A stretch of 56,254 nt of DNA from Myxococcales bacterium (GCA_036393835.1 DASWGI010000112.1:1-56254); one strand, 5' to 3'; positions 1,208 through 17,499 are shown, numbered from the stretch's first letter. The notes: a model not told the origin generated them from the letters alone. Made by a program: numbers and translations.

Positions 1208-2467
1208 TCACGTACGTACCTGCCCATCGCCCCGCACCACGAACCGGGTGCAGGTCAGCTCGCGCAGCCCCATCGGGCCGTACGCGTGCAGCTTGCTGGT
1301 CGAGATGCCGATCTCGGCCCCCAGGCCCAGCTCGCCGCCGTCGTTGAAGCGGGTCGACGCGTTCACCAGCGTGCAGCTCGCGTCGACCTCCCTCACGAAC
1401 CTCTCGGCGAGCTGACCGTCGCGCGTGCAGATGGCCTCGGTGTGGCGCGAACCGTAACGCGCGATGTGCCCCAGCGCACCCTCGACGCCGTCCACCACCG
1501 CCACCGCCAGGGTCAGGTCGAGGAACTCCCGGCCGAAGTCGTCGGGCGCGGCCGGACGCGCGCCAGGCAGCCAGGGGAGCGCCCGCGCATCGGCGCGCAG
1601 CTCGACGCCGGCCGCCTGCAGCGCCGGGCCCAGCCGCGGCAGCGCCTGCGCGGCGATGCGGGCGTCGACCAGCAAGCACTCCAGCGCGTTGCACACCCCG
1701 GGCCGCTGCGCCTTCGCATTCACCGCGATGCTCTCCGCCTGCCCGAGGTCCGCGTCGGCCGCGACGTAGAGGTGGCAGACGCCTTGGTAGTGCCTCACCA
1801 CCGGGATGCGCGACCGCTCCGCCACGAATCGGATCAGCGAGGTCCCGCCCCTTGGGATGCACAGGTCGATCCGCTCGTCCTGCTGCAGGAGCGTGTCGAG
1901 CAGCGCGCGGTCGGGCGGCACCAACTGCACCGCGTCCTCCGGCAGGCCCGCCTTCTCCAGGGCGCGCTGGAACGCCTCCACCAGGACGGAGTTGCTCTGC
2001 AGCGCCTCCGACCCGCCGCGCAAGAGCGTCGCGTTGCCGCTGCGCAGGCACAGGGCGGCAGCGTCGGCCGTGACCCCGGGGCGCGATTCGTAGATCAGCA
2101 GCACCACGCCCAGGGGGGCCCGGACCCGCTCGACGCGCAGGCCGTTGGGCCGGGTGGTCCGCTCCACCACCTCGCCCACCGGATCGGGCAGCGCGGCCAC
2201 CTCGCGCACGGCCCGGGCGAGGTCCGAAAGCCGTCCGGCGTCGAGCCGGAGCCGATCCAGGAACGCCGCGTTCTGGCCGGCCGCGCCGCGCAGGTCGGCC
2301 GCATTCGCCGCCTCCATCGCGGTCGCCACGCGGGGCGACTCCAGCTCGGCCGCGAAGAACTGCAGCGCGCGGGCGCGCTGGTCGGAGGAGCCGCGCACCA
2401 GCTCGCGAGACGCGGTGCGCGCGCGCTCGGCCAGCTCGACGGCCAGAAGCTCCCGCTCCACGCTCAC
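1208..2467 (-). CDS. proA: gamma-glutamyl phosphate reductase
   Basis: 419 aa from GTG 2467. Aldehyde-dehydrogenase-type ProA motifs ([47 protein letters not shown]). GTGA overlap with the proB stop. Confidence 0.93.
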
Positions 2468-3609
2468 TGGTGCACCACCAGGTCGTCGCGGTGGACGACG
2501 CAGTCGAGGAGCCGGTAGCCGAGCCGCGCCTCGATCTCGGTGCTGCGCAGCCCCGCGATGCGGCGCACCTCGTCGGCGGCGTACACCGCCAGGCCGCGCG
2601 CGAACGGCCGGCCGTCGAGGGAGACGATCTCCACGGGATCGCCCTGTGCGAAGCTGCCGCGCACCTCGCGCACTCCGGAAGGCAGCAGGCTCTTCTTGCC
2701 CTCGAGCACGGCGGTGCGCGCGCCGTCGTCGACCCGCAGCTCGCCGCGCGCCTTGAGGTCGAGCATCCACCGCTGCCGCAGCCGCAGCCGCTCTCCCTGG
2801 GGGAGGACCAGCGTGCCCACGTCCTCGCCGAGGAGCAGCCGCTGCAGCGCCCGCGGCTCGCCGGGGATGATGGCGCAGGGCACGCCCGCCTCGGTGGCCC
2901 GCCGCGCGGCGCGCAGCTTGGTGACCATCCCTCCGGTGCCCACCTGGCCGGCGGCGTCGCCCGCCAAGGCTTCCACCGCCGGCGTGATGCGATCGATCAC
3001 GGAGATCCGCTGTGCGTCGGGGTCCTTGCGCGGGTCCGCCGAGCAGACGCCTACCGCGTCGGTGAGGATGACCAGGAGGTCCGCCTCGACCAGGTCGACC
3101 ACCATCGCCGCGAGCGCATCGTTGTCGCCGAACTTGATCTCCTCGACGGAGACGGTGTCGTTCTCGTTGATGACCGGCACCACGCCGCGCTCGACCAGCG
3201 CGCCGAGCGCGCGGCGCGCGTTCAAGTAGCGGCCGCGGTGCGCGATGTCCGCGTGGGTGAGCAAGACCTGCGCGCAGATCAGGCCGCGCGCCTCGAAGGC
3301 GTCGTCGTACAGGCGCATCAGCCGGCTCTGGCCGGCGGCCGCCGCCGCCTGCTTGAGCGCCATCTCGCGGGGGCGCGCAGGGAGCTGCAGGCGCTCGACG
3401 CCGAGGGCGACCGCGCCGCTCGACACCAAGACGGGCAGCCGCGCGCCCCCGCCCGCCACCGCGGCGACGTCGTCGCAAAGGGCCGAGAATCGTTCGCGAT
3501 CCAGCGTAGGGGCGCCCGCCTGCCCGCCCCGTCCCGCCAGCACCGCGGAGCCGATCTTGATCACCGGCCGCCGGGTCTGGGCGAGTTGGGTTCGGGGGCT
3601 CTGCGTCAT
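2464..3609 (-). CDS. proB: glutamate 5-kinase with C-terminal PUA domain
   Basis: 381 aa from ATG 3609 (the track ORF extends 11 aa further). Motifs [34 protein letters not shown]-like tail [17 protein letters not shown]. Confidence 0.93.
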
Positions 3610-3670
3610 CGGAAGCGCATCTGCGCACCCGTACGATAGCAAAGCCCCCGACTCGGTGCAGAGCCGCTAC

Positions 3671-4039
3671 CTACTCCGCGCGCAAGCAGACGGCCTCGAC
3701 GTTGTGGCCGTCGGGGTCGAGGACGAACGCCGCGTAGTACGTCTCGCCGTAGCTCGGCCTCGGGCCCGGTTTTCCGTTGTCTTTACCGCCGGCCGCGAGC
3801 GCGGCCGCGTGGAAGCGCTGGACGGATGCGCGGTCCTTGGCCTGGAAGGCCAGGTGGAGCGCGCTCCCGGTCCGGCCGGCCCCGAGCCACAGCTGAGGGG
3901 CGCCCGGCCTGCCGAACCCGGCGGACCCGGCCTGCGCGTCGTGGGACTCGAGGCCGTACCCGAGCGGCTCCAGGGCGGCGCGATAGAAGCTCAAGCTCCT
4001 GGCGAAATCCGACACCGGCAATCCGACGTGGTCGAACAT
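3671..4039 (-). CDS. VOC (glyoxalase/bleomycin-resistance/dioxygenase) family protein
   Basis: 122 aa from ATG 4039 with GGAGGA 5 nt upstream. MFDHVGLPVSDFARSLSFY...YYAAFVLDPDGHNVEAV is a typical VOC fold signature. Confidence 0.8.
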   Translation of the reverse strand: MFDHVGLPVSDFARSLSFYRAALEPLGYGLESHDAQAGSAGFGRPGAPQLWLGAGRTGSALHLAFQAKDRASVQRFHAAALAAGGKDNGKPGPRPSYGETYYAAFVLDPDGHNVEAVCLRAE

Positions 4040-4152
4040 GGTTTCCTCCGAGGGTGGAGACCGCCAGGTACCGCGCCGCGCGCGCGGCGTCTTGGCGAAA
4101 GTTGCGGTGCCCGCCACCCGTCCGGTTGCGACGCCTCGTCTACCCGAGCAGG

Positions 4153-5004
4153 ATGCCGGCCATGACGGTGGCGGTGCGGCGGACGAGTTGCGCTCCGGGC
4201 ATCTGCATGACGGACGTGCTCTGCAGCGCGGGGCCGGGGGACGCGCCGTTCGAGGAGTGGCACGCCATCGCGTCCGTCGCGTTCGTCACGCAGGGCGGGT
4301 TCGGGTACCGGTGCAGCGCCGGCTCGGCCGCGCTCGGGCCCGGCGCCGTGCTGCTGGGAAACGCGCGCGGCGCCTACACCTGCACGCACCTCGCTCCCGG
4401 CGGCGACCGCTGCCTCTCGTTCGGCTATTCCGCCGAGGTGGTGGAGGAAGTCGCCGCCTCGGCCGGCGCCACCGGGCGTTTCCGGCGCGCGGCCCTGCCC
4501 GCCGCGCCCGCCTTCGCCGCCCTGCCGGCACTGGCTTTGTCCGCGGTCGAGGGCGCCGGACCGTCGCTGGAGGAGATCGCGGTCGAGGCGCTCGGCCGGG
4601 CGCTCTCCGCGGACGCCGGGGACGGGGCGGGCGCGCCGCTGCGCGCGCGCGACGAGCGCCGGGCAATCGAGGCGATGCGCTCGATCGACGCGGGCGCTTC
4701 CGAGCCGCTCAGCTTGGGAGAGATGGCCGGCCGGGCGGGGCTGGGCCGGTTCCACTTCCTGCGCGCGTTCCGCGGCGCGACCGGCACCACGCCGCACCAG
4801 TACCTGCTCGCGGCCCGCCTGCGCCGGGCTGCGCGGCTGCTCCTGACCACCTCGCTGCCAGTCACCGAGGTCGCGCTGGAGGCCGGGTTCGGCGATCTCT
4901 CCAACTTCATCCGCACCTTCCGCCGCGCGGCCGGCCGGTCGCCGCGCGCGTTCCGGCTGCAGGGCGGCGCTCCCGGCCGCGCGCCTGTCCGGCGGCCCGG
5001 CTGA
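4153..5004 (+). CDS. AraC-family transcriptional regulator
   Basis: 283 aa. C-terminal double HTH (LSLGEMAGRAGLGRFHFLRAFRGATGTTPHQYLLAARL...VTEVALEAGFGDLSNFIRTFRRAAGRSP). Divergent from the VOC gene. Alternative ATG at 4162. Confidence 0.8.
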   Translation: MPAMTVAVRRTSCAPGICMTDVLCSAGPGDAPFEEWHAIASVAFVTQGGFGYRCSAGSAALGPGAVLLGNARGAYTCTHLAPGGDRCLSFGYSAEVVEEVAASAGATGRFRRAALPAAPAFAALPALALSAVEGAGPSLEEIAVEALGRALSADAGDGAGAPLRARDERRAIEAMRSIDAGASEPLSLGEMAGRAGLGRFHFLRAFRGATGTTPHQYLLAARLRRAARLLLTTSLPVTEVALEAGFGDLSNFIRTFRRAAGRSPRAFRLQGGAPGRAPVRRPG

Positions 5005-9324: not shown

Positions 9325-10773
<1,449 letters not shown>

Positions 10774-10802
10774 CTTCCACTCCTCCCATTGGTGTGCGCG
10801 CC

Positions 10803-10831
10803 TTCGAAACGAACAACGGTCGCGCCGTTGA
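10803..10831 (-). terminator. intercistronic hairpin + U-rich tract between glnB and glnA (attenuator / partial terminator)
   Basis: Minus strand reads CAACGG-cgcga-CCGTTG followed by TTCGTTTCG. It starts 8 nt after the glnB stop. Confidence 0.4.
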
Positions 10832-10837
10832 GGTTCC

Positions 10838-11844
<1,007 letters not shown>

Positions 11845-11945: not shown

Positions 11946-12749
11946 ATGGCCTTCCTCCCCGCCCGACCGCTGCAGCTCGATCCGCGCGCGCTCGCCCAGC
12001 GCCGCCTCCGCAACTTCGGGATCACCGCGGTCCTCATCGCCATGGGCGCGGCGTTCTGCGCCGGCTCGGTCATCTCCGCCCGGCAGGTGGTCGAGGAGCG
12101 CGTGCTCTGGGCGCGCGGCACGCAGGGGAAGCTCGTGCACCTCGCCGGCAAGGTGGAGGAGACGCAGAAGCTCGGCCTGACCTTCTTCTACGACTACGAC
12201 CTGGACGTGAAATGGGTGGACGCGCAGGGCCGGCAGCATTCCGGCAAGACGAGCTTCGGGCGCACCTTCCGGGGCGTCGGCAAGCGCGAGGCCCCGCGGC
12301 TCCGCTACGACCCCGCCGCCCCGGAGCGATTCGTCCTCTCCTGGGCGGCGCAAGGCGGGCTGCCCCGCGCCGGCCTCGCCATCGTCTGCGGCCTGCTCGG
12401 CGCGCTGATGCTCGTGTGCGCCCGGACCCTGGCCAGGGTCGAGCGCCGGCGTCTGGAGCTGCTCCGGATGTGCGCCGAGGACGGCGAGGAGGTGGTGGGC
12501 GAGGTGGAGAAAGCCTGGAGCCACAAGGGCGTCCACTACCTGCGCTACCGCCTGCCGGACGACGTGCGGGTGCGCAAGTACCAGGGGGACGCGCCGTTCG
12601 TCTTCGCCCGCGAGGGCGCCCTGCACGTGCTCGCGCTGCGCTCGCCGCGCGCTCCCGACGCCCCCTTGCTGGTCGAGGCGGACCTGCGCTCCTTCGACCT
12701 CCCCGTCGAGGTTCGCGCGCGGGTGCTCTCCGCGGCGGCCGCGGGGTAG
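11946..12749 (+). CDS. two-TM membrane protein, DUF3592-like
   Basis: 267 aa. Two hydrophobic helices (ITAVLIAMGAAFCAGSVI; LAIVCGLLGALMLVCA), each followed by a beta-rich segment. Same strand as the downstream 898-aa gene. Confidence 0.55.
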   Translation: MAFLPARPLQLDPRALAQRRLRNFGITAVLIAMGAAFCAGSVISARQVVEERVLWARGTQGKLVHLAGKVEETQKLGLTFFYDYDLDVKWVDAQGRQHSGKTSFGRTFRGVGKREAPRLRYDPAAPERFVLSWAAQGGLPRAGLAIVCGLLGALMLVCARTLARVERRRLELLRMCAEDGEEVVGEVEKAWSHKGVHYLRYRLPDDVRVRKYQGDAPFVFAREGALHVLALRSPRAPDAPLLVEADLRSFDLPVEVRARVLSAAAAG

Positions 12750-12854: not shown

Positions 12855-15551
12855 GTGGGTTACGCCGACGAGCGCCCGGCGCTGCTCGCGCGCCTGCGGA
12901 AGCACGCTGAGGGCCGCGCCCTGCAGGACGCGCTCCGCCTCGATGGGCGCGCGCTGCGCTTCCACCTCGGCACCTCGCTCGCCGACCTCCGCGTCCCGGT
13001 CGCGCTCGGCGCCGACTTGCGCCGCGCGTTCACGGCGGCGGTACGCGACCTGTACTTCCTGCTCTGCCTGCGCCACCGGGCGTCGCTCAAGGAGAGCGAA
13101 TTCGACCAGCTCCTCCTGCAGGACGGGTTCGATTCCAAGGCCCTGCGGCCGGTGTCCTTCTCTCCGCCGCCGACGGTCACGGGAGAGAACGTGCGCCGGG
13201 CCTTCGCCGAGGCCCCCGAGCTGCACCCCGCGCTGGACGCCGGCGTGCTGGCCTCGTGGATCGCTTCCGGGCGCCCCGGCCGCGTTTGGGTCGGGGTGCT
13301 CAATGCCGTCCTGCGCCGGGCCATGACGGAAGCGGCGGCGAGCGATCGCCACGAGCCCACCGCTTACCTGCTCTTGCTCTCGCTGCGCATCCTGGCCGAC
13401 GAAGCGTACGGCATCCTGCGCGCTGTCCCGCTCGCGCAGGGAATGCACCGCGTCGTCCACGGGGCGGTGGCGACCGGGCTGCTCGTCGCCGCGCGCCTCG
13501 CCGCCCGCGAGGCCCGCGCCTTCGACGCGCCGGGGGGCGTCCTGTCGGAAGCGGCCACGCATGCGCTGAGCTGGATGGGCGGGCTGCGCCACCTGGCCGG
13601 AGGCTCGAGTCACGCGTACGGCGTCGCCTTCGCCGAGCCGGCCGCGCGCATGGACCTGTACGCCCACAAGGTGGTGCAGGGCGCCTCTCCGGAGCAGCTC
13701 GTAAAGGACGTGAATGCCGAGTTGGAGGGCGCGGAGGATGCCTTCCACCGCGCCGAGCGCGCCTTCGCGCTGGCGACCATCCGCTCCGACCTGCTGCACC
13801 TGCTGCGGCTGTCCGAGACGACGCGCACGCCGCCCTTCGGGCTGGACGGCGTGGCGCCGGCGCAGCTCTTCGGATCGCCCGGCGTGCTGGAGCGCGTGCT
13901 CGCCTCCCCGGAGCGCCGCAAGGAGATGCACGCGCGGGCCAAGGCGGCGGCCAAGGCGGCGAGCCAGGACGAGGCGCGCGCCGCGCTGCAATCGCTGTCC
14001 CGCGTCAGCAAGGAATGGCGCGAGGAGGGGTCGTCCGTCTTCGCCGCGGCCGACGTGCGGGAAGGCAACGGGCGGGCGGTGGTCGCGCTGGCCGTGGACG
14101 CCGCGCTGGAGAAGCTGCTCGACCAGGCCGAGCTGTCGCTCCTGCACCGCTCCGGGCAGGAGAGCGCCGACGGCATCGAAGCCGAGCACGAGCGGGGCCG
14201 GCTCTACCTGGTCCGCGCCGAGGAGCGGCCGATCCTGCGGGCCAGGGCCCAGGCGCTGCAGATGGGGCATCTCTTCTGCGACGTGAAGGACTTCACCCGC
14301 CGGACGGCCTTCCTCAAGGAAGCGGTGGTCGCCGACTTCCTCTCGCGCGAGTTCTACACGCCGATCCTCACCGCGGCGGCGCGCCATCACCACGGAGCGG
14401 GTCACCTCCACGACAAGGGCGGCATCTACCTCAACAACCTGCTCGGCGACGCCGTCAGCTTCTCGGGCGACGTGGCCGCGCTGGTGGCACTGGCGCACGA
14501 CATCCGCCGGGCGCTGAACAGCTACTCCAAGCGGCTCGACAGCGAGAGCAGCTCCGAGGCGGTGGCGAGGAGCATCGCCTCCATCGAGCAGCGCGCGGCC
14601 GCTCGCCGAGCCGAGTTGGAGCAGCAGATGGCCGAGGCCGATGCGGAGCTGCGCCAGGGCCTCGCGGACAAGACCCGCGATGAGCCCCGCGCGCGCCTCT
14701 CGCGGCTCCACCTGGAGCTGTCCCGCCTCGAGGAGGAGCGCCAGTCGGAAATCGCCCTCGCCGCGGGCGAGAAGCTGGAGGCGGGCATCTTCATCTCCTA
14801 CGGCGCCGCGCCGGAAGTGGCCACCTTCGAGGACCACGTGTTCGGCTCCATCAAGGTGGCGATCGCGGAGAAGATCAACGAAAGCGCCCGCGGCACCGCG
14901 CGCAACGGCGGCGTGCGCGCGCGCATCGACAGCCTGGTCAGGCAGGTGCGCTCTTCGCACGGCCGCGCCGACCTGTCTTGTCCATTCTCCGTGTTCGTCT
15001 CGCAGCCGCTGGTCATCCCCGTGCCCCCGGAGGCCGAGCTCGCGGTGCGCGGGTGCCTGGAGGACGGCGACCTGGGCGGGGCGGAGCTCATGCTGCAGGA
15101 ATCCGTCCGCCAGTTCGTCGCCCGTCTCTCGCAGGACACCGGGATCGCGGGCGGAGGCGACATCTACAACGGCGGCGCGGCGCTCTCCGAGGAGGCGTTG
15201 CGCGCGTACGTCCGGGCGCGCGGAGGCGAGCTGACGTTCCTGCGCCGCCGCCTCCCGGTGGCTTCGCTGCACGCCTCGATCACCGAGCGGTTCGTCTTCC
15301 CCATGCAGACCCTGCGGCTGGTCGCGGCGGTGGCGCCCGACGGGCAGAGCCTGCACGAGCTGTACGTCCACGTCGGGCGCGCGCTCTTCAAGGGCTTCGA
15401 GAAGACCGGCGGCCTCGGCGTCTACGAGATGGTGCCGCCCTCCTCCGGGCTGTTCTCCCTGCTCGCCCAGCACCACCTGCCCGGGTGGCTGCTCGAGCAC
15501 GAACAGGGCAAGGACGAGGAGGAGCCGAGGCCGGAGGCCGCGGGAGCATGA
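12855..15551 (+). CDS. large orphan protein with divergent, split class-III nucleotidyl-cyclase-like palm domain
   Basis: 898 aa from GTG 12855. Motifs in order: LFCD(476)VKDFT, LLGD(532)AVSFSG, then GIFISYG...FGSIKVAIAEKINESARG. They are separated by an approximately 85-aa coiled-coil-like insert. The antisense 892-aa ORF is low-complexity. Confidence 0.7.
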   Translation: MGYADERPALLARLRKHAEGRALQDALRLDGRALRFHLGTSLADLRVPVALGADLRRAFTAAVRDLYFLLCLRHRASLKESEFDQLLLQDGFDSKALRPVSFSPPPTVTGENVRRAFAEAPELHPALDAGVLASWIASGRPGRVWVGVLNAVLRRAMTEAAASDRHEPTAYLLLLSLRILADEAYGILRAVPLAQGMHRVVHGAVATGLLVAARLAAREARAFDAPGGVLSEAATHALSWMGGLRHLAGGSSHAYGVAFAEPAARMDLYAHKVVQGASPEQLVKDVNAELEGAEDAFHRAERAFALATIRSDLLHLLRLSETTRTPPFGLDGVAPAQLFGSPGVLERVLASPERRKEMHARAKAAAKAASQDEARAALQSLSRVSKEWREEGSSVFAAADVREGNGRAVVALAVDAALEKLLDQAELSLLHRSGQESADGIEAEHERGRLYLVRAEERPILRARAQALQMGHLFCDVKDFTRRTAFLKEAVVADFLSREFYTPILTAAARHHHGAGHLHDKGGIYLNNLLGDAVSFSGDVAALVALAHDIRRALNSYSKRLDSESSSEAVARSIASIEQRAAARRAELEQQMAEADAELRQGLADKTRDEPRARLSRLHLELSRLEEERQSEIALAAGEKLEAGIFISYGAAPEVATFEDHVFGSIKVAIAEKINESARGTARNGGVRARIDSLVRQVRSSHGRADLSCPFSVFVSQPLVIPVPPEAELAVRGCLEDGDLGGAELMLQESVRQFVARLSQDTGIAGGGDIYNGGAALSEEALRAYVRARGGELTFLRRRLPVASLHASITERFVFPMQTLRLVAAVAPDGQSLHELYVHVGRALFKGFEKTGGLGVYEMVPPSSGLFSLLAQHHLPGWLLEHEQGKDEEEPRPEAAGA

Positions 15552-15703
15552 GCGACCAGAAGCAGGTGCAGCAGTTCCCGCCGCCCGAGCCGGAGCCGCC
15601 CGAGCCGAGCTTCAAGCATTACCTGCTCGGCTGGGGCGCCATCTTCCTCGCGCTGGTCGCGCTGGGCGTGCTGCTGGGCGTCCTGATGCGCGTGCTCCGT
15701 TAG
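15548..15703 (+). CDS. 51-aa single-TM micro-protein translationally coupled to the cyclase-like gene
   Basis: ATGA start/stop overlap at 15548-15551, with GGAGG 10 nt upstream. Sequence is MSDQKQVQQFPPPEPEPPEPSFKHYLLGWGAIFLALVALGVLLGVLMRVLR. Confidence 0.5.
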   Translation: MSDQKQVQQFPPPEPEPPEPSFKHYLLGWGAIFLALVALGVLLGVLMRVLR

Positions 15704-17499
15704 TCCAGCTGGAAGGTCTGGAACACGCCCTTCTCGTCCAGCATGGTGCCCCAGACCTTGTGCGAGGCTTGGTGCTCGCTCATGCCGAAGCTGAGCGAAG
15801 CGCCGGTGCCCAGGTCGAGGCCGCGGATGCTCTCCAGCGCGTCGATGACCTTCTCGGTCTCGAGCGCCTGGGCGCGCTTGAGGCCCTCCACCAGCAGGGT
15901 GCCGGCGAGGTAGCCCTCCAGCGAGACGAAGTCCGGCTTCTCGCCCGGCGCGTACTTGCGCAGCGCCTCCTGGTACTTCAACACCGCGGTGGCGCTCGAC
16001 TGGGGCAGCGGGACGACCTGGGTCACCATCACGCCCTGGGCGAACCTCGGGCCCAGCGCGGCCAACTCCTCGGCGAGCGCGTTCGAGCCGACGAAGGAGA
16101 CGTTGGTGAAGATGATGTCCGACCCCTTCTCCCGCATCTTCTCGACCAGCCTGGCGGCGGCCTTGTACGTGGGGACGCACACCACGGCGCGCACGTTGGA
16201 GTGCTTCCCGAGCTCGGTGACCGCTTCCGAGACGTCGGATGTGTTGCGCTGGTAACCGAGGCGCAGGATCTTGGACGGGTCGCGGCCGTAGCGGCGCATC
16301 GCGCGCGCCACGCCCTCGAAGCCCGCGTCCCCGTAGGAGTCCTGCTGCGCGAAGACGGCGATGTCCGCCGGCTTGATGCGCTTCACGTCGACCAGGTGCT
16401 TGACGATCGCCGCGGTCTCCTCGGCGTAGCTGGCGCGGTAGTTGAACACGTAGCGGTCGGGCGGATCCTTGCGGAGCAGGGGCGCGCCGGTGAACGGACC
16501 GAAGAAGAGCATCTTGTGCTCCACCGCGTACGGGACGGCCACGGCGGCCGTGGGAGTGCCCACGTTGCCGATGAAGCCGAACACCCGCCGCTGCTCCCTC
16601 AGCTCCTTCATCACGACGACCGTGCGGGTCGGCTCGTAGCCGTCGTCGAGCGCGATCAGCTGCAGCCTGCGCCCTTGCACGCCGCCGGCCTCGTTGGCGG
16701 CCGCGAACGCGACCTCCACGCCCGTCTTCATCATCCGGCCCAGCTCCTTGGCGGGGCCGGTGAGCGGCGAGGCCATGCCGAACAGCAGGTCGCCCTGCGC
16801 CACCGGCGCGGGCTGCGCCGAGGGCTGCACCACCGACGCGACCTTCACGCCGTCCTTCGCGCCGCCGATTCCCATCGGCCCTTCGCCCGACCAGTGAGAG
16901 CGCAGCAGGAGCACGCCGGGACCGCCCAGCGCCAGCGCGGCGACCACGCCGAGGAGCAGCGCCCCGCGGTGGTTCTTGGCGGGCGCCACCATCGGCGGCG
17001 GGGGTGGCATCGGCACCCGCCCGGTGGGGGGGCGCATCGGCCCCGGAGTCGGGCGGGCCGGAGTGGGCTTGCGATCCGAAGTCACGACTGCCTCCTTGTC
17101 GAGGCCGGCGAGCACGTCTTCCACGTCGCGGTTGGCCTCGTCCTCGCGCCAGGCTTCCTCGAGCAGCACCTTGGTCCAGGGCTCATGGATCGCGCGGGCG
17201 GGGCAGACCGCGTTCTTGTCCACGCGGAAGGTCCCGTCGCGCAGCCTCATGGCCGTACGAATCGCGTCGAGGCCGCGGTGGTTGCCCAGGTGCGCGTCGA
17301 CCACGTCCCCGTTCTCGATGAAGAACGTGCCCTCGCCTCGCGAGGTCCGCACCACGAGCGCGACGGTCTCCCGGCGCTGGCAATAGAACTGCACCAGGTC
17401 GGTGAACGGCGTTTCGCTCAAGTCTCCGGTCAAGGCCACGGCGGCTTCTCCCCTGGGCGACCAGAGTAGCGCGCCTTGTAAAAAATCCCAAAATTTCAC
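15700..17499 (-). CDS. DUF4388 domain - Pro-rich linker - TM - type-I periplasmic binding (LivK/Peripla_BP_6-like) fusion protein
   Basis: 599 aa from GTG 17499. N-terminal LTGDLSETPFTDLVQFYCQ...GTFFIENGDVVDA (DUF4388). TM segment ALLLGVVAALALGGPGVLLL. C-terminal PBP motifs. Confidence 0.85.
   Translation of the reverse strand: MKFWDFLQGALLWSPRGEAAVALTGDLSETPFTDLVQFYCQRRETVALVVRTSRGEGTFFIENGDVVDAHLGNHRGLDAIRTAMRLRDGTFRVDKNAVCPARAIHEPWTKVLLEEAWREDEANRDVEDVLAGLDKEAVVTSDRKPTPARPTPGPMRPPTGRVPMPPPPPMVAPAKNHRGALLLGVVAALALGGPGVLLLRSHWSGEGPMGIGGAKDGVKVASVVQPSAQPAPVAQGDLLFGMASPLTGPAKELGRMMKTGVEVAFAAANEAGGVQGRRLQLIALDDGYEPTRTVVVMKELREQRRVFGFIGNVGTPTAAVAVPYAVEHKMLFFGPFTGAPLLRKDPPDRYVFNYRASYAEETAAIVKHLVDVKRIKPADIAVFAQQDSYGDAGFEGVARAMRRYGRDPSKILRLGYQRNTSDVSEAVTELGKHSNVRAVVCVPTYKAAARLVEKMREKGSDIIFTNVSFVGSNALAEELAALGPRFAQGVMVTQVVPLPQSSATAVLKYQEALRKYAPGEKPDFVSLEGYLAGTLLVEGLKRAQALETEKVIDALESIRGLDLGTGASLSFGMSEHQASHKVWGTMLDEKGVFQTFQLD

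Follow-up and report, generated by a model that had tools for sequence, protein, structure and literature searches.

Class III nucleotidyl cyclases are the main source of cyclic AMP and cyclic GMP in bacteria and eukaryotes, and inventories of these enzymes rest on the Pfam model PF00211 (Guanylate_cyc). Their specificity position is occupied by Lys in adenylyl cyclases (a Lys-Asp pair for ATP) and by Glu in guanylyl cyclases (Glu-Cys, Glu-Ser and other pairs for GTP). In many bacterial members the cyclase domain lies at the C-terminus of a multi-domain protein, Rv1625c-type and mammalian adenylyl cyclases are membrane-anchored through a fused multi-helix domain, and in the Pycsar and Pucsar systems a class III-type cyclase gene directly precedes a gene for a membrane protein. 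The bacterial DUF2652 proteins are diverged class III cyclases that are seen only by sensitive comparison; they keep the metal aspartates, and their specificity and transition-state residues are non-canonical (Ramakrishnan et al. 2016, PMC4886424). Here we describe a locus in a 56,254-nucleotide stretch of DNA from a Myxococcales bacterium (GCA_036393835.1 DASWGI010000112.1:1-56254; the window), in which a gene for an 898-amino-acid protein (the large gene and large protein) is followed by a 51-codon open reading frame (ORF) that we have designated the micro-ORF. The large gene probably encodes a soluble class III-type cyclase of a family that neither Pfam nor NCBIfam models, with the micro-protein tethering or modulating it, the two forming a vertically inherited housekeeping signalling module.

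Computational work that recognised DUF2652 as cyclase-like (PMC4886424) comes nearest as a precedent, and it concerns a different family. Like the DUF2652 proteins, the large-protein family shows diverged sequence, conserved metal aspartates and a non-canonical specificity residue; unlike them, it has no DUF2652 match, its members are far bigger, with insertions and an N-terminal domain, and it is found in metagenome-assembled genomes (MAGs) of Myxococcota and Thermodesulfobacteriota. With the class III cyclases in general (PF00211; Spirulina CyaC 1wc3, Cya2 2w01, P. aeruginosa CyaB 3r5g, M. tuberculosis Rv1900c 1ybt) it shares the predicted fold and element order, the F-x-D-x-x-[GD]-F-T block, the G-D turn, an alpha4 helix with a basic residue, a ..KG....vY.. 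C-terminal block and the C-terminal placement of the cyclase domain. It differs from them in lying below Pfam and NCBIfam detection, in having two large insertions and Asn in place of the specificity Lys/Glu, in its 450-amino-acid N-terminal domain without known relative and, in one clade, in its translationally coupled micro membrane protein.

A model of residues 440-898 (AlphaFold2 (AF2) monomer, 41-sequence alignment including the Anaeromyxobacter clade at 40-47% identity) was compared with PDB structures using Foldseek. The top ~30 matches were exclusively class III cyclases, the best being CyaC (1wc3, E 1.6e-4), and included Cya2 (2w01), bPAC, the C1 domain of mammalian adenylyl cyclase (1cjk), Rv1900c (1ybt), soluble guanylyl cyclase (sGC, 3uvj) and OaPAC. 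The Foldseek probability was 0.93-1.00 across the top 29 matches, with a TM(target) of 0.45-0.52 for single-domain targets (CyaC, Cya2, 1cjk, Rv1900c) and 0.13-0.38 for larger entries (bPAC, OaPAC, 6fht). Some alignments to Cya2 and sGC (TM(target) 0.51-0.52) covered 368 columns and therefore pass through both insertions into the C-terminal part. The AF2 model of the full-length protein had a predicted local distance difference test (pLDDT) score of 77, its N-terminal half being confidently all-helical and its C-terminal half less confident. Class III cyclases were also on top when this model was used, only suggestively so (E>=0.05), and significance was reached only with the domain model from the more diverse alignment; outside the cyclase region Foldseek gave no significant match for the large protein. 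The AF2 secondary structure (strands at 470-477, 524-527, 533-539, 643-649, 654-660 and 664-669; helices at 489-512, 540-565 and 671/674-682) places the elements of the C-terminal half in the order found in the cyclase homology domain.

The same search bears on an alternative in which the palm is an active nucleotidyltransferase with another chemistry, whose product would be a di- or oligonucleotide, as with GGDEF and Cas10/mCpol enzymes, or something non-canonical, and not a 3',5'-cyclic nucleotide. The non-canonical Asn528 leaves the substrate open, and GGDEF and Csm structures were among the weaker fold matches, the first GGDEF entry ranking 38th (E 0.22) and a Cas10/Csm complex 46th. Additionally, the beta1 sequence D-x-K-D-F-T and the motif AEKINESARGTARN bear a putative likeness to the GGDEF motifs D-x-D-x-F-K and A-D-x-A-L-Y-x-A-K-x-x-G-R-N. 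However, class III cyclases were ahead of GGDEF by about three orders of magnitude in E-value, the turn is a cyclase-like L-L-G-D-A with no GG[DE]EF motif, PF00990 did not match and the C-terminal ..FKG....VYE block is cyclase-like. We regard a non-cyclase chemistry as unlikely.

Profile-profile alignment agreed with the structural search. A cyclase profile of 16 sequences (three PDB cyclases, twelve diverse PF00211 proteins and a canonical cyclase from locus L036, described below) was aligned using hhalign with a profile that had the window protein as master, which gave P=3e-5 and 73% probability over beta1-alpha3. With L075, a natural homologue without insert, as master the alignment extended from beta1 to alpha4 (129 columns, P=3.4e-6, 88% probability), and the second block of the domain aligned contiguously. 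A thin four-sequence cyclase profile gave probabilities of 25-48% in the same register. The register was constant over all runs, GHLFCD476VKDFT falling on ..lFsDirGFT and LNNLLGD532A on iDKfvGDa, and D476 and D532 aligned with both Asp residues of CyaB, Cya2, CyaC and 12 other PF00211 proteins. This stability therefore identifies D476 and D532 as the two metal-binding aspartates and N528 as the Lys/Glu position. On the model and the profiles, residues ~465-865 are predicted to be a class III cyclase homology domain whose blocks are collinear with those of canonical cyclases.

Conservation was concentrated at the same residues. In 17 sequences of 28-71% identity the invariant positions were F474, D476, K478, F480, N528, G531, D532, A533, G644, G650, G664, V668, E672-G680, R683, N772, G774, G841 and G847; D476, N528, D532, G644, G664, V668, E672-G680 and G847 were also invariant in the 41-sequence alignment. 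LFCD476VKDFT, NNLLGD532AVSFSG and EKINESARG were unchanged in homologues down to 27-30% identity, and EKINESARG is probably the alpha4 catalytic helix. The preliminary description of this DNA, made from sequence, had proposed a class III cyclase-type palm split by an insert, with motif blocks at D476, D532 and 672-680. The structural search and the profile-profile alignment bear out the split palm, the blocks lie where they were placed, and Asp476 and Asp532 were invariant in every alignment made. As a check on that palm, the comparison with known families was supported by the class III top matches of Foldseek and not by Pfam, where neither PF00211 nor GGDEF (PF00990) matched. The coordinates of the locus are given in Table 1.

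Table 1. Features of the large gene, the micro-ORF and their neighbours in the window.
Feature	Position	Strand	Basis
Large gene, 898 amino acids, GTG start, TGA stop (15549-15551)	12855..15551	+	ORF list, homologue N-termini
N-terminal all-alpha domain, ~450 amino acids, family-specific	12855..14204	+	AF2 pLDDT mostly 85-95
Cyclase domain, first half (beta1-alpha1/2-beta2-beta3-alpha3), with GHLFCD476VKDFT and NNLLGD532A	14247..14549	+	hhalign, AF2
Asp476 codon, first metal-binding Asp (F-x-D-x-x-G-F-T of class III cyclases)	14280..14282	+	hhalign
Asn528 codon, position of specificity Lys/Glu, four residues before second Asp	14436..14438	+	hhalign, LNNLLGD vs iDKfiGD
Asp532 codon, second metal-binding Asp (GD of beta2-beta3 turn)	14448..14450	+	hhalign
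Insert 1, Ala/Glu/Arg-rich helical hairpin, coiled-coil-like, between alpha3 and beta4, residues ~566-640	14550..14774	+	AF2, composition
Cyclase domain, second block (beta4, beta5, alpha4), LEAGIFISYGAAPEVATFED660HVFG664SIKV668AIAEK673IN675ESAR679GTAR	14775..14906	+	AF2, hhalign
EKINESARG (672-680), most conserved motif of the family	14868..14894	+	Invariance in alignments
Insert 2, conserved helical elaboration after alpha4, residues ~685-767, ~80 amino acids	14907..15155	+	Secondary structure; in all clades
C-terminal alpha/beta part with GDIYN772GGA..SEEAL and VGRALFK846GFEK..GVYE	15156..15449	+	Foldseek, hhalign, pLDDT 83-95
GGAGG, Shine-Dalgarno-like, within large-gene end, 10 nucleotides before micro-ORF ATG	15533..15537	+	Sequence
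ATGA, micro-ORF start overlapping large-gene stop	15548..15551	+	Sequence
Micro-ORF, 51 amino acids, TAG stop 15701-15703, hydropathy 2.68	15548..15703	+	Sequence, homologues
DUF4388-Peripla_BP_6 gene, convergent, TAA overlapping micro-ORF TAG by 2 nucleotides	15700..17499	-	Pfam
267-amino-acid ORF, two hydrophobic segments (~residues 24-46 and 138-165), ending 105 nucleotides upstream of large gene	11946..12749	+	ORF list, hydropathy
glnA and glnB (P-II), divergent to large gene	9325..11176	-	Gene neighbourhood

The two halves of the domain are separated by insert 1, for which AF2 gave helices at 568-600 and 609-637. L075, L056 and L080 lack this segment altogether, L030 and L036 have a shorter version of it, and in L076 it exceeds 200 residues; because its length differs so widely among natural homologues it is a variable insertion in a domain loop. 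The coiled-coil-like separator of the preliminary description was thus located at residues ~566-640 and found to vary in length. Within insert 2 a short strand, CPFSVFV, may on the model be the equivalent of beta6. The final ~170 residues, in which nothing recognisable had been reported, correspond to the C-terminal part of the cyclase domain in the structural alignments and, weakly, in the profile comparison: VGRALFK846GFEK..GVYE paired with the G.i.vKG...Pv.iY.v end of canonical cyclases in an alternative hhalign match (E 0.04-0.06). This region is most likely the rest of the cyclase domain, since it is confidently modelled, aligns structurally and shows this weak pairing.

The large gene was confirmed from the ORF list and the sequence as an 898-codon frame ending in ATGA, as originally described, and its homologues share the N-terminus M/V-G/A-Y-A-D/E-E-R and the same start as the window protein. 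Its GC content at codon positions 1, 2 and 3 (0.76/0.48/0.94) identifies the + strand as the coding strand. An 892-amino-acid ORF lies antisense to the gene; shadow ORFs on the opposite strand are usual in high-GC genomes, and given the codon-position GC of the + strand this frame was rejected as such a shadow. The G+C content was 70-75% over the entire window. The maximum 19-residue hydropathy of the large protein was 1.59, with no transmembrane segment, and the protein is soluble and multi-domain. Residues 1-450 contain many invariant charged or polar residues, among them R73-H74, D93, H124, D128, R143 and E159, and this domain had no sequence relative in Pfam, NCBIfam or the PDB. Ligand binding or even catalysis is a possible function of this domain, because it combines a confident model and these invariant residues with the lack of a sequence or structural relative.

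The micro-ORF was found, using a peptide hidden Markov model (HMM), directly after the large gene in 29 of the 34 loci of the clade with at least 44% identity. The same HMM gave no match elsewhere in six-frame translations of ~1 Mb of related loci, and none in distant clades. Its ATG or GTG start overlapped the upstream stop by 4 nucleotides in 27 loci and by 1 nucleotide in one, and lay 23 nucleotides downstream in another. The homologous micro-proteins are 51-60 amino acids long and consist of an acidic Pro-rich head (~24 residues in the window's 51-residue peptide), one transmembrane helix and a five-residue basic tail (M-R/K-x-L-R), with the consensus ..V-E/Q-H/Q-Y/F-P-P-P..E/D..P-P-P-S/T-F-K/R-Q.L.G-Y/W-G.I...L..L-G-V-L-I/L-G-V/L-L-M-R/K-V-L-R followed by the stop. 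Two other readings of the micro-ORF were considered, a chance open frame of GC-rich DNA and a neighbouring gene functionally unlinked to the large protein. In their favour, the reading frame stays open over 241 codons upstream, which is normal at 72% GC, several close-clade loci and every distant clade lack the micro-ORF, and no family model (Pfam and PADLOC included) matches the micro-protein. These readings are very improbable when set against the retention of the peptide sequence across genomes of 54-96% identity, the predominance of the 4-nucleotide overlap, the summed entropy at codon positions 1/2/3 (21.4/10.6/33.0 over 33 gap-free C-terminal codons), in which third positions vary most, a Nei-Gojobori dN/dS of ~0.33 (323 pairs), a GC content at third codon positions of 0.96, and the fact that NCBI and JGI independently list the peptide among the hypothetical proteins of many MAGs. 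The codon statistics indicate that the micro-ORF is a real, conserved gene under purifying selection. The ATGA coupling, the GGAGG motif 10 nucleotides upstream, the single-transmembrane ORF itself and its stop-to-stop overlap with the convergent DUF4388-PBP gene, all part of the preliminary description, were confirmed by the sequence and the coordinates, and the pairing of large gene and micro-ORF held up, within the close clade, in the gene-neighbourhood and selection checks.

Three further observations concern the end of the large gene. ORFs downstream of the large gene in distant clades were rejected as micro-ORF counterparts, being shadows of the convergent genes that follow the large gene there in place of the micro-ORF. 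In locus L035 (~1200-1460, +) a non-homologous 86-amino-acid single-transmembrane ORF (…RRRKLVVALGALAAAAVVLGVMWVRSLFH) follows the cyclase-like gene with the same 4-nucleotide overlap, which hints that a small membrane partner was acquired more than once at this position. The acidic C-terminal tail of the large protein (W-L-x-E-H-E-x-G…; window 15450-15548, +) is missing in L020 and L082, both without the micro-ORF, and present in L014, likewise without it; co-evolution of tail and micro-ORF is suggested by the first two loci, contradicted by L014 and too weak to call.

Several observations weigh against the interpretation of this locus as a cyclase with a membrane partner. Pfam found no domain, PF00211 included, in 36 family members (the window protein, 25 at E<=10 and 10 distant members at E<=0.1), the hhalign probabilities were all below 90%, and AF2 confidence was lowest (pLDDT 37-50) right at the catalytic loops and helix alpha4. 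The canonical substrate-specifying Lys/Glu is replaced by the invariant Asn528, for which D660 is the candidate partner in the hhalign register; base specificity is not readable from sequence because of this substitution. The specificity pair defines base specificity more than class III membership, and atypical pairs occur in active cyclases (PMC4886424). In alpha4, the transition-state Asn/Arg pair would be either N675/R679 or A669/K673. The i/i+4 spacing of N675/R679 fits [VI]-N-x-x-x-R, the stretch E672-G680 around them is invariant, and both AF2 models have a strand at 664-669 and a helix starting at 671-674 (pLDDT there 37-47), so that the G..G....G..[IV]N.A.R register originally proposed is plausible. 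The hhalign register lies six residues earlier, with D660 as the specificity Asp, G664 as the conserved Gly, V668-A669 as V-N and K673 as Arg, and was favoured again in an insignificant sub-alignment of alpha4 (score 11); a basic residue is present at the Arg position in either register. On the side of the micro-protein, the micro-ORF is absent in the Anaeromyxobacter and Thermodesulfobacteriota clades and in the close-clade loci L014, L020, L031 (whose large gene encodes 907 amino acids) and L082, so the enzyme does not depend on it. Finally, by the positive-inside rule the basic side of a membrane protein is cytoplasmic, which would put the acidic head in the periplasm and leave ~5 cytoplasmic residues to contact the enzyme; in the alternative, tail-anchored orientation the Pro-rich head would face the cytoplasm and be accessible to the enzyme.

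Some of these observations would also suit a catalytically dead scaffold, in which the cyclase fold is kept within a larger protein for binding nucleotides or other proteins. The change of the specificity Lys/Glu to Asn528, that of the transition-state Asn to Ala669 in the hhalign register, the two large insertions and the 450-residue domain without relative all point that way, and a novel fold resembling that of nucleotidyl cyclases is reported in a 2026 preprint for a cell-division protein (PMC13060281), which may or may not be catalytic. Against this, homologues as distant as 27-30% identity retain both metal aspartates and the nine-residue alpha4 motif (Asn and Arg at i/i+4) without change, a pattern typical of a conserved active site, and established cyclases can also be without the transition-state Asn, Rv1900c having His (PMC4886424). 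Loss of activity across the family seems doubtful to us.

The large protein had been described as an orphan, which the database searches refuted. The first homology search returned 140 clusters at 90% identity (~890-950 amino acids, 54-96% identical to the window protein), a domain-profile search returned 443 clusters, and an exhaustive HMMER search of 1.84 billion representatives returned 302 clusters at 50% identity, of which 170 reached E<=1e-30. The homologues are ~850-1000 amino acids long and derive from MAGs of Myxococcota and Thermodesulfobacteriota. A scan of species-representative genomes identified 78 loci, with one gene copy per genome and every carrier an uncultured MAG. Identity to the window protein follows the taxonomic labels: 54-96% in 'Myxococcales/Deltaproteobacteria bacterium' genomes, 34-38% in Anaeromyxobacter and Anaeromyxobacteraceae, and 27-33% in Thermodesulfobacteriota and unclassified bacteria. 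NCBIfam and PADLOC gave no match for the large protein, PDB sequence and profile searches gave chance-level matches only (a CopG/Arc segment, E 0.06), a BFVD search of viral structures found nothing, an exact-sequence look-up returned no record for the window protein, and literature searches found no description of the family. The JGI pipeline names four homologues 'class 3 adenylate cyclase'. Separately, L036, a Myxococcaceae MAG locus, encodes an 820-amino-acid canonical class III cyclase (1982-4441, -) with a strong PF00211-type match ~1.5 kb from the divergent family member, and this was the sole canonical cyclase in the ~1 Mb of related loci. The claim of an undescribed architecture stands for the libraries and papers searched; as a claim of new signalling logic it does not, since the architecture is an elaboration of a known enzyme class. 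New here are the Pfam-invisible family, the unusual insertion architecture, the unmatched N-terminal domain and the micro-protein partner; the class III cyclase enzyme class is known.

The arrangement also recalls a cyclic-nucleotide anti-phage module of the Pycsar, Pucsar or Panoptes kind, in which a nucleotide signal made on infection would activate the small peptide as a membrane-disrupting effector. A cyclase-type palm stands directly before a translationally coupled membrane protein on the same strand, a uridylate cyclase (8jsz) was among the weak matches of the first fold search, and systems are reported in which class III-like or Cas10-like cyclases work with transmembrane effectors (for example PMC11224242 and PMC12657218). 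The effectors of Pycsar and Pucsar, transmembrane or TIR, carry a cyclic-nucleotide-binding domain, for which a peptide of 51-60 residues has no room. Moreover, PADLOC (2023 version, without the newest systems) matched none of the four local proteins, no viral protein matched structurally (BFVD), most of the family lacks the micro-ORF, and the single-copy gene, its identity tracking taxonomy, sits in a core neighbourhood of uniform GC with glnB-glnA, creatininase and ZnuA genes. The cyclase-plus-membrane-effector logic of the preliminary description fails on these points, and a Pycsar-like module was rejected as the main explanation because the peptide cannot sense a nucleotide, is clade-restricted and belongs to a core-genome locus without a defence model; we consider it highly unlikely. 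Its confinement to one clade marks the micro-protein as an accessory partner in the membrane that does not sense nucleotides, and it is unlikely to be an effector activated by a nucleotide.

The genomic context is that of the core genome. The glnB-glnA pair divergently adjoins the large gene in nearly all loci of at least 44% identity (L001-L034, L082), often at 92-170 nucleotides, and this adjacency may reflect a shared regulatory region or simply retained synteny. Downstream of the large gene, close-clade loci carry a creatininase-family gene and a ZnuA/ABC cluster. The Anaeromyxobacter clade has no glnB-glnA arrangement; there, panD and the trp operon precede the large gene and a DsbA-like gene follows it. 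The locus is vertically inherited core genome and not a mobile or defence island, given the glnB-glnA synteny, the uniform GC, the identity that tracks taxonomy and the lack of PADLOC matches, and the same evidence points to a housekeeping role.

Other neighbours are of narrower distribution. The 267-amino-acid gene, a DUF4142-like gene and the DUF4388-PBP gene were found only in the subclade of at least 83% identity that includes the window. In the DUF4388-PBP protein, a Pro-rich linker that contains a hydrophobic segment lies between the N-terminal DUF4388 and a binding domain of the Leu/Ile/Val type (Peripla_BP_6). The 267-amino-acid ORF, limited to the closest subclade and always ~100-120 nucleotides upstream of the large gene, had been reported as a two-transmembrane DUF3592-like gene; its position and two hydrophobic segments were as reported, and the DUF3592 label was not supported, there being no match in Pfam (E<=1), NCBIfam or PADLOC. 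A 211-amino-acid ORF (window 11209-11844, +) between glnB and this gene, present in the closest subclade only, showed weak, sub-threshold similarity to CopM-family metallochaperones (E 0.003). Promoter, terminator and Rfam scans of 10.5-18 kb of the window found nothing.

Taken as a class III-type cyclase, the large protein would act as a head-to-tail homodimer, as other class III cyclases do, with two Mg2+/Mn2+ ions bound via D476 and D532 of one subunit. It would convert a nucleoside triphosphate to the 3',5'-cyclic monophosphate and pyrophosphate, the base being left unspecified by Asn528. The ~450-residue all-alpha N-terminal domain would serve as a sensory or regulatory module, through which the cyclase may be regulated, possibly via the coiled-coil insert. 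In the clade of the window, the enzyme would be co-translated with the 51-60-residue single-pass membrane protein by way of the overlapping stop and start, and that protein would most likely hold the cyclase at the inner membrane or modulate it there, as a separate-subunit equivalent of fused membrane anchors. If the micro-protein does tether the enzyme, the cyclase domain would be membrane-associated like those of Rv1625c-type and mammalian adenylyl cyclases, and unlike them its anchor would be a separate 51-residue subunit supplied by translational coupling. More speculatively, and with rather little expectation on our part, the pair could form a two-subunit membrane-associated cyclase in which a peptide of ~50 residues, tail-anchored or Pf3-coat-like, is a membrane-sensing or regulatory subunit, the pair being a 'split' version of fused membrane cyclases, and the Asn528 pocket and the N-terminal domain could specify a non-canonical product.

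The family comprises at least 300 clusters at 50% identity and occurs as one copy per genome in many Myxococcota of soil and in some Thermodesulfobacteriota. It is unseen by Pfam and NCBIfam, and genome-based counts of second-messenger enzymes therefore miss it in these lineages. As the carriers in the genome scan are all uncultured MAGs, functional work will require heterologous expression. Between alpha3 and beta4 the cyclase domain accommodates anything from no insertion to one of more than 200 residues, a property that could serve for studying or engineering regulation at this point, and the coupled micro-protein offers a well-defined example, open to testing, of a signalling enzyme with a small membrane protein attached.

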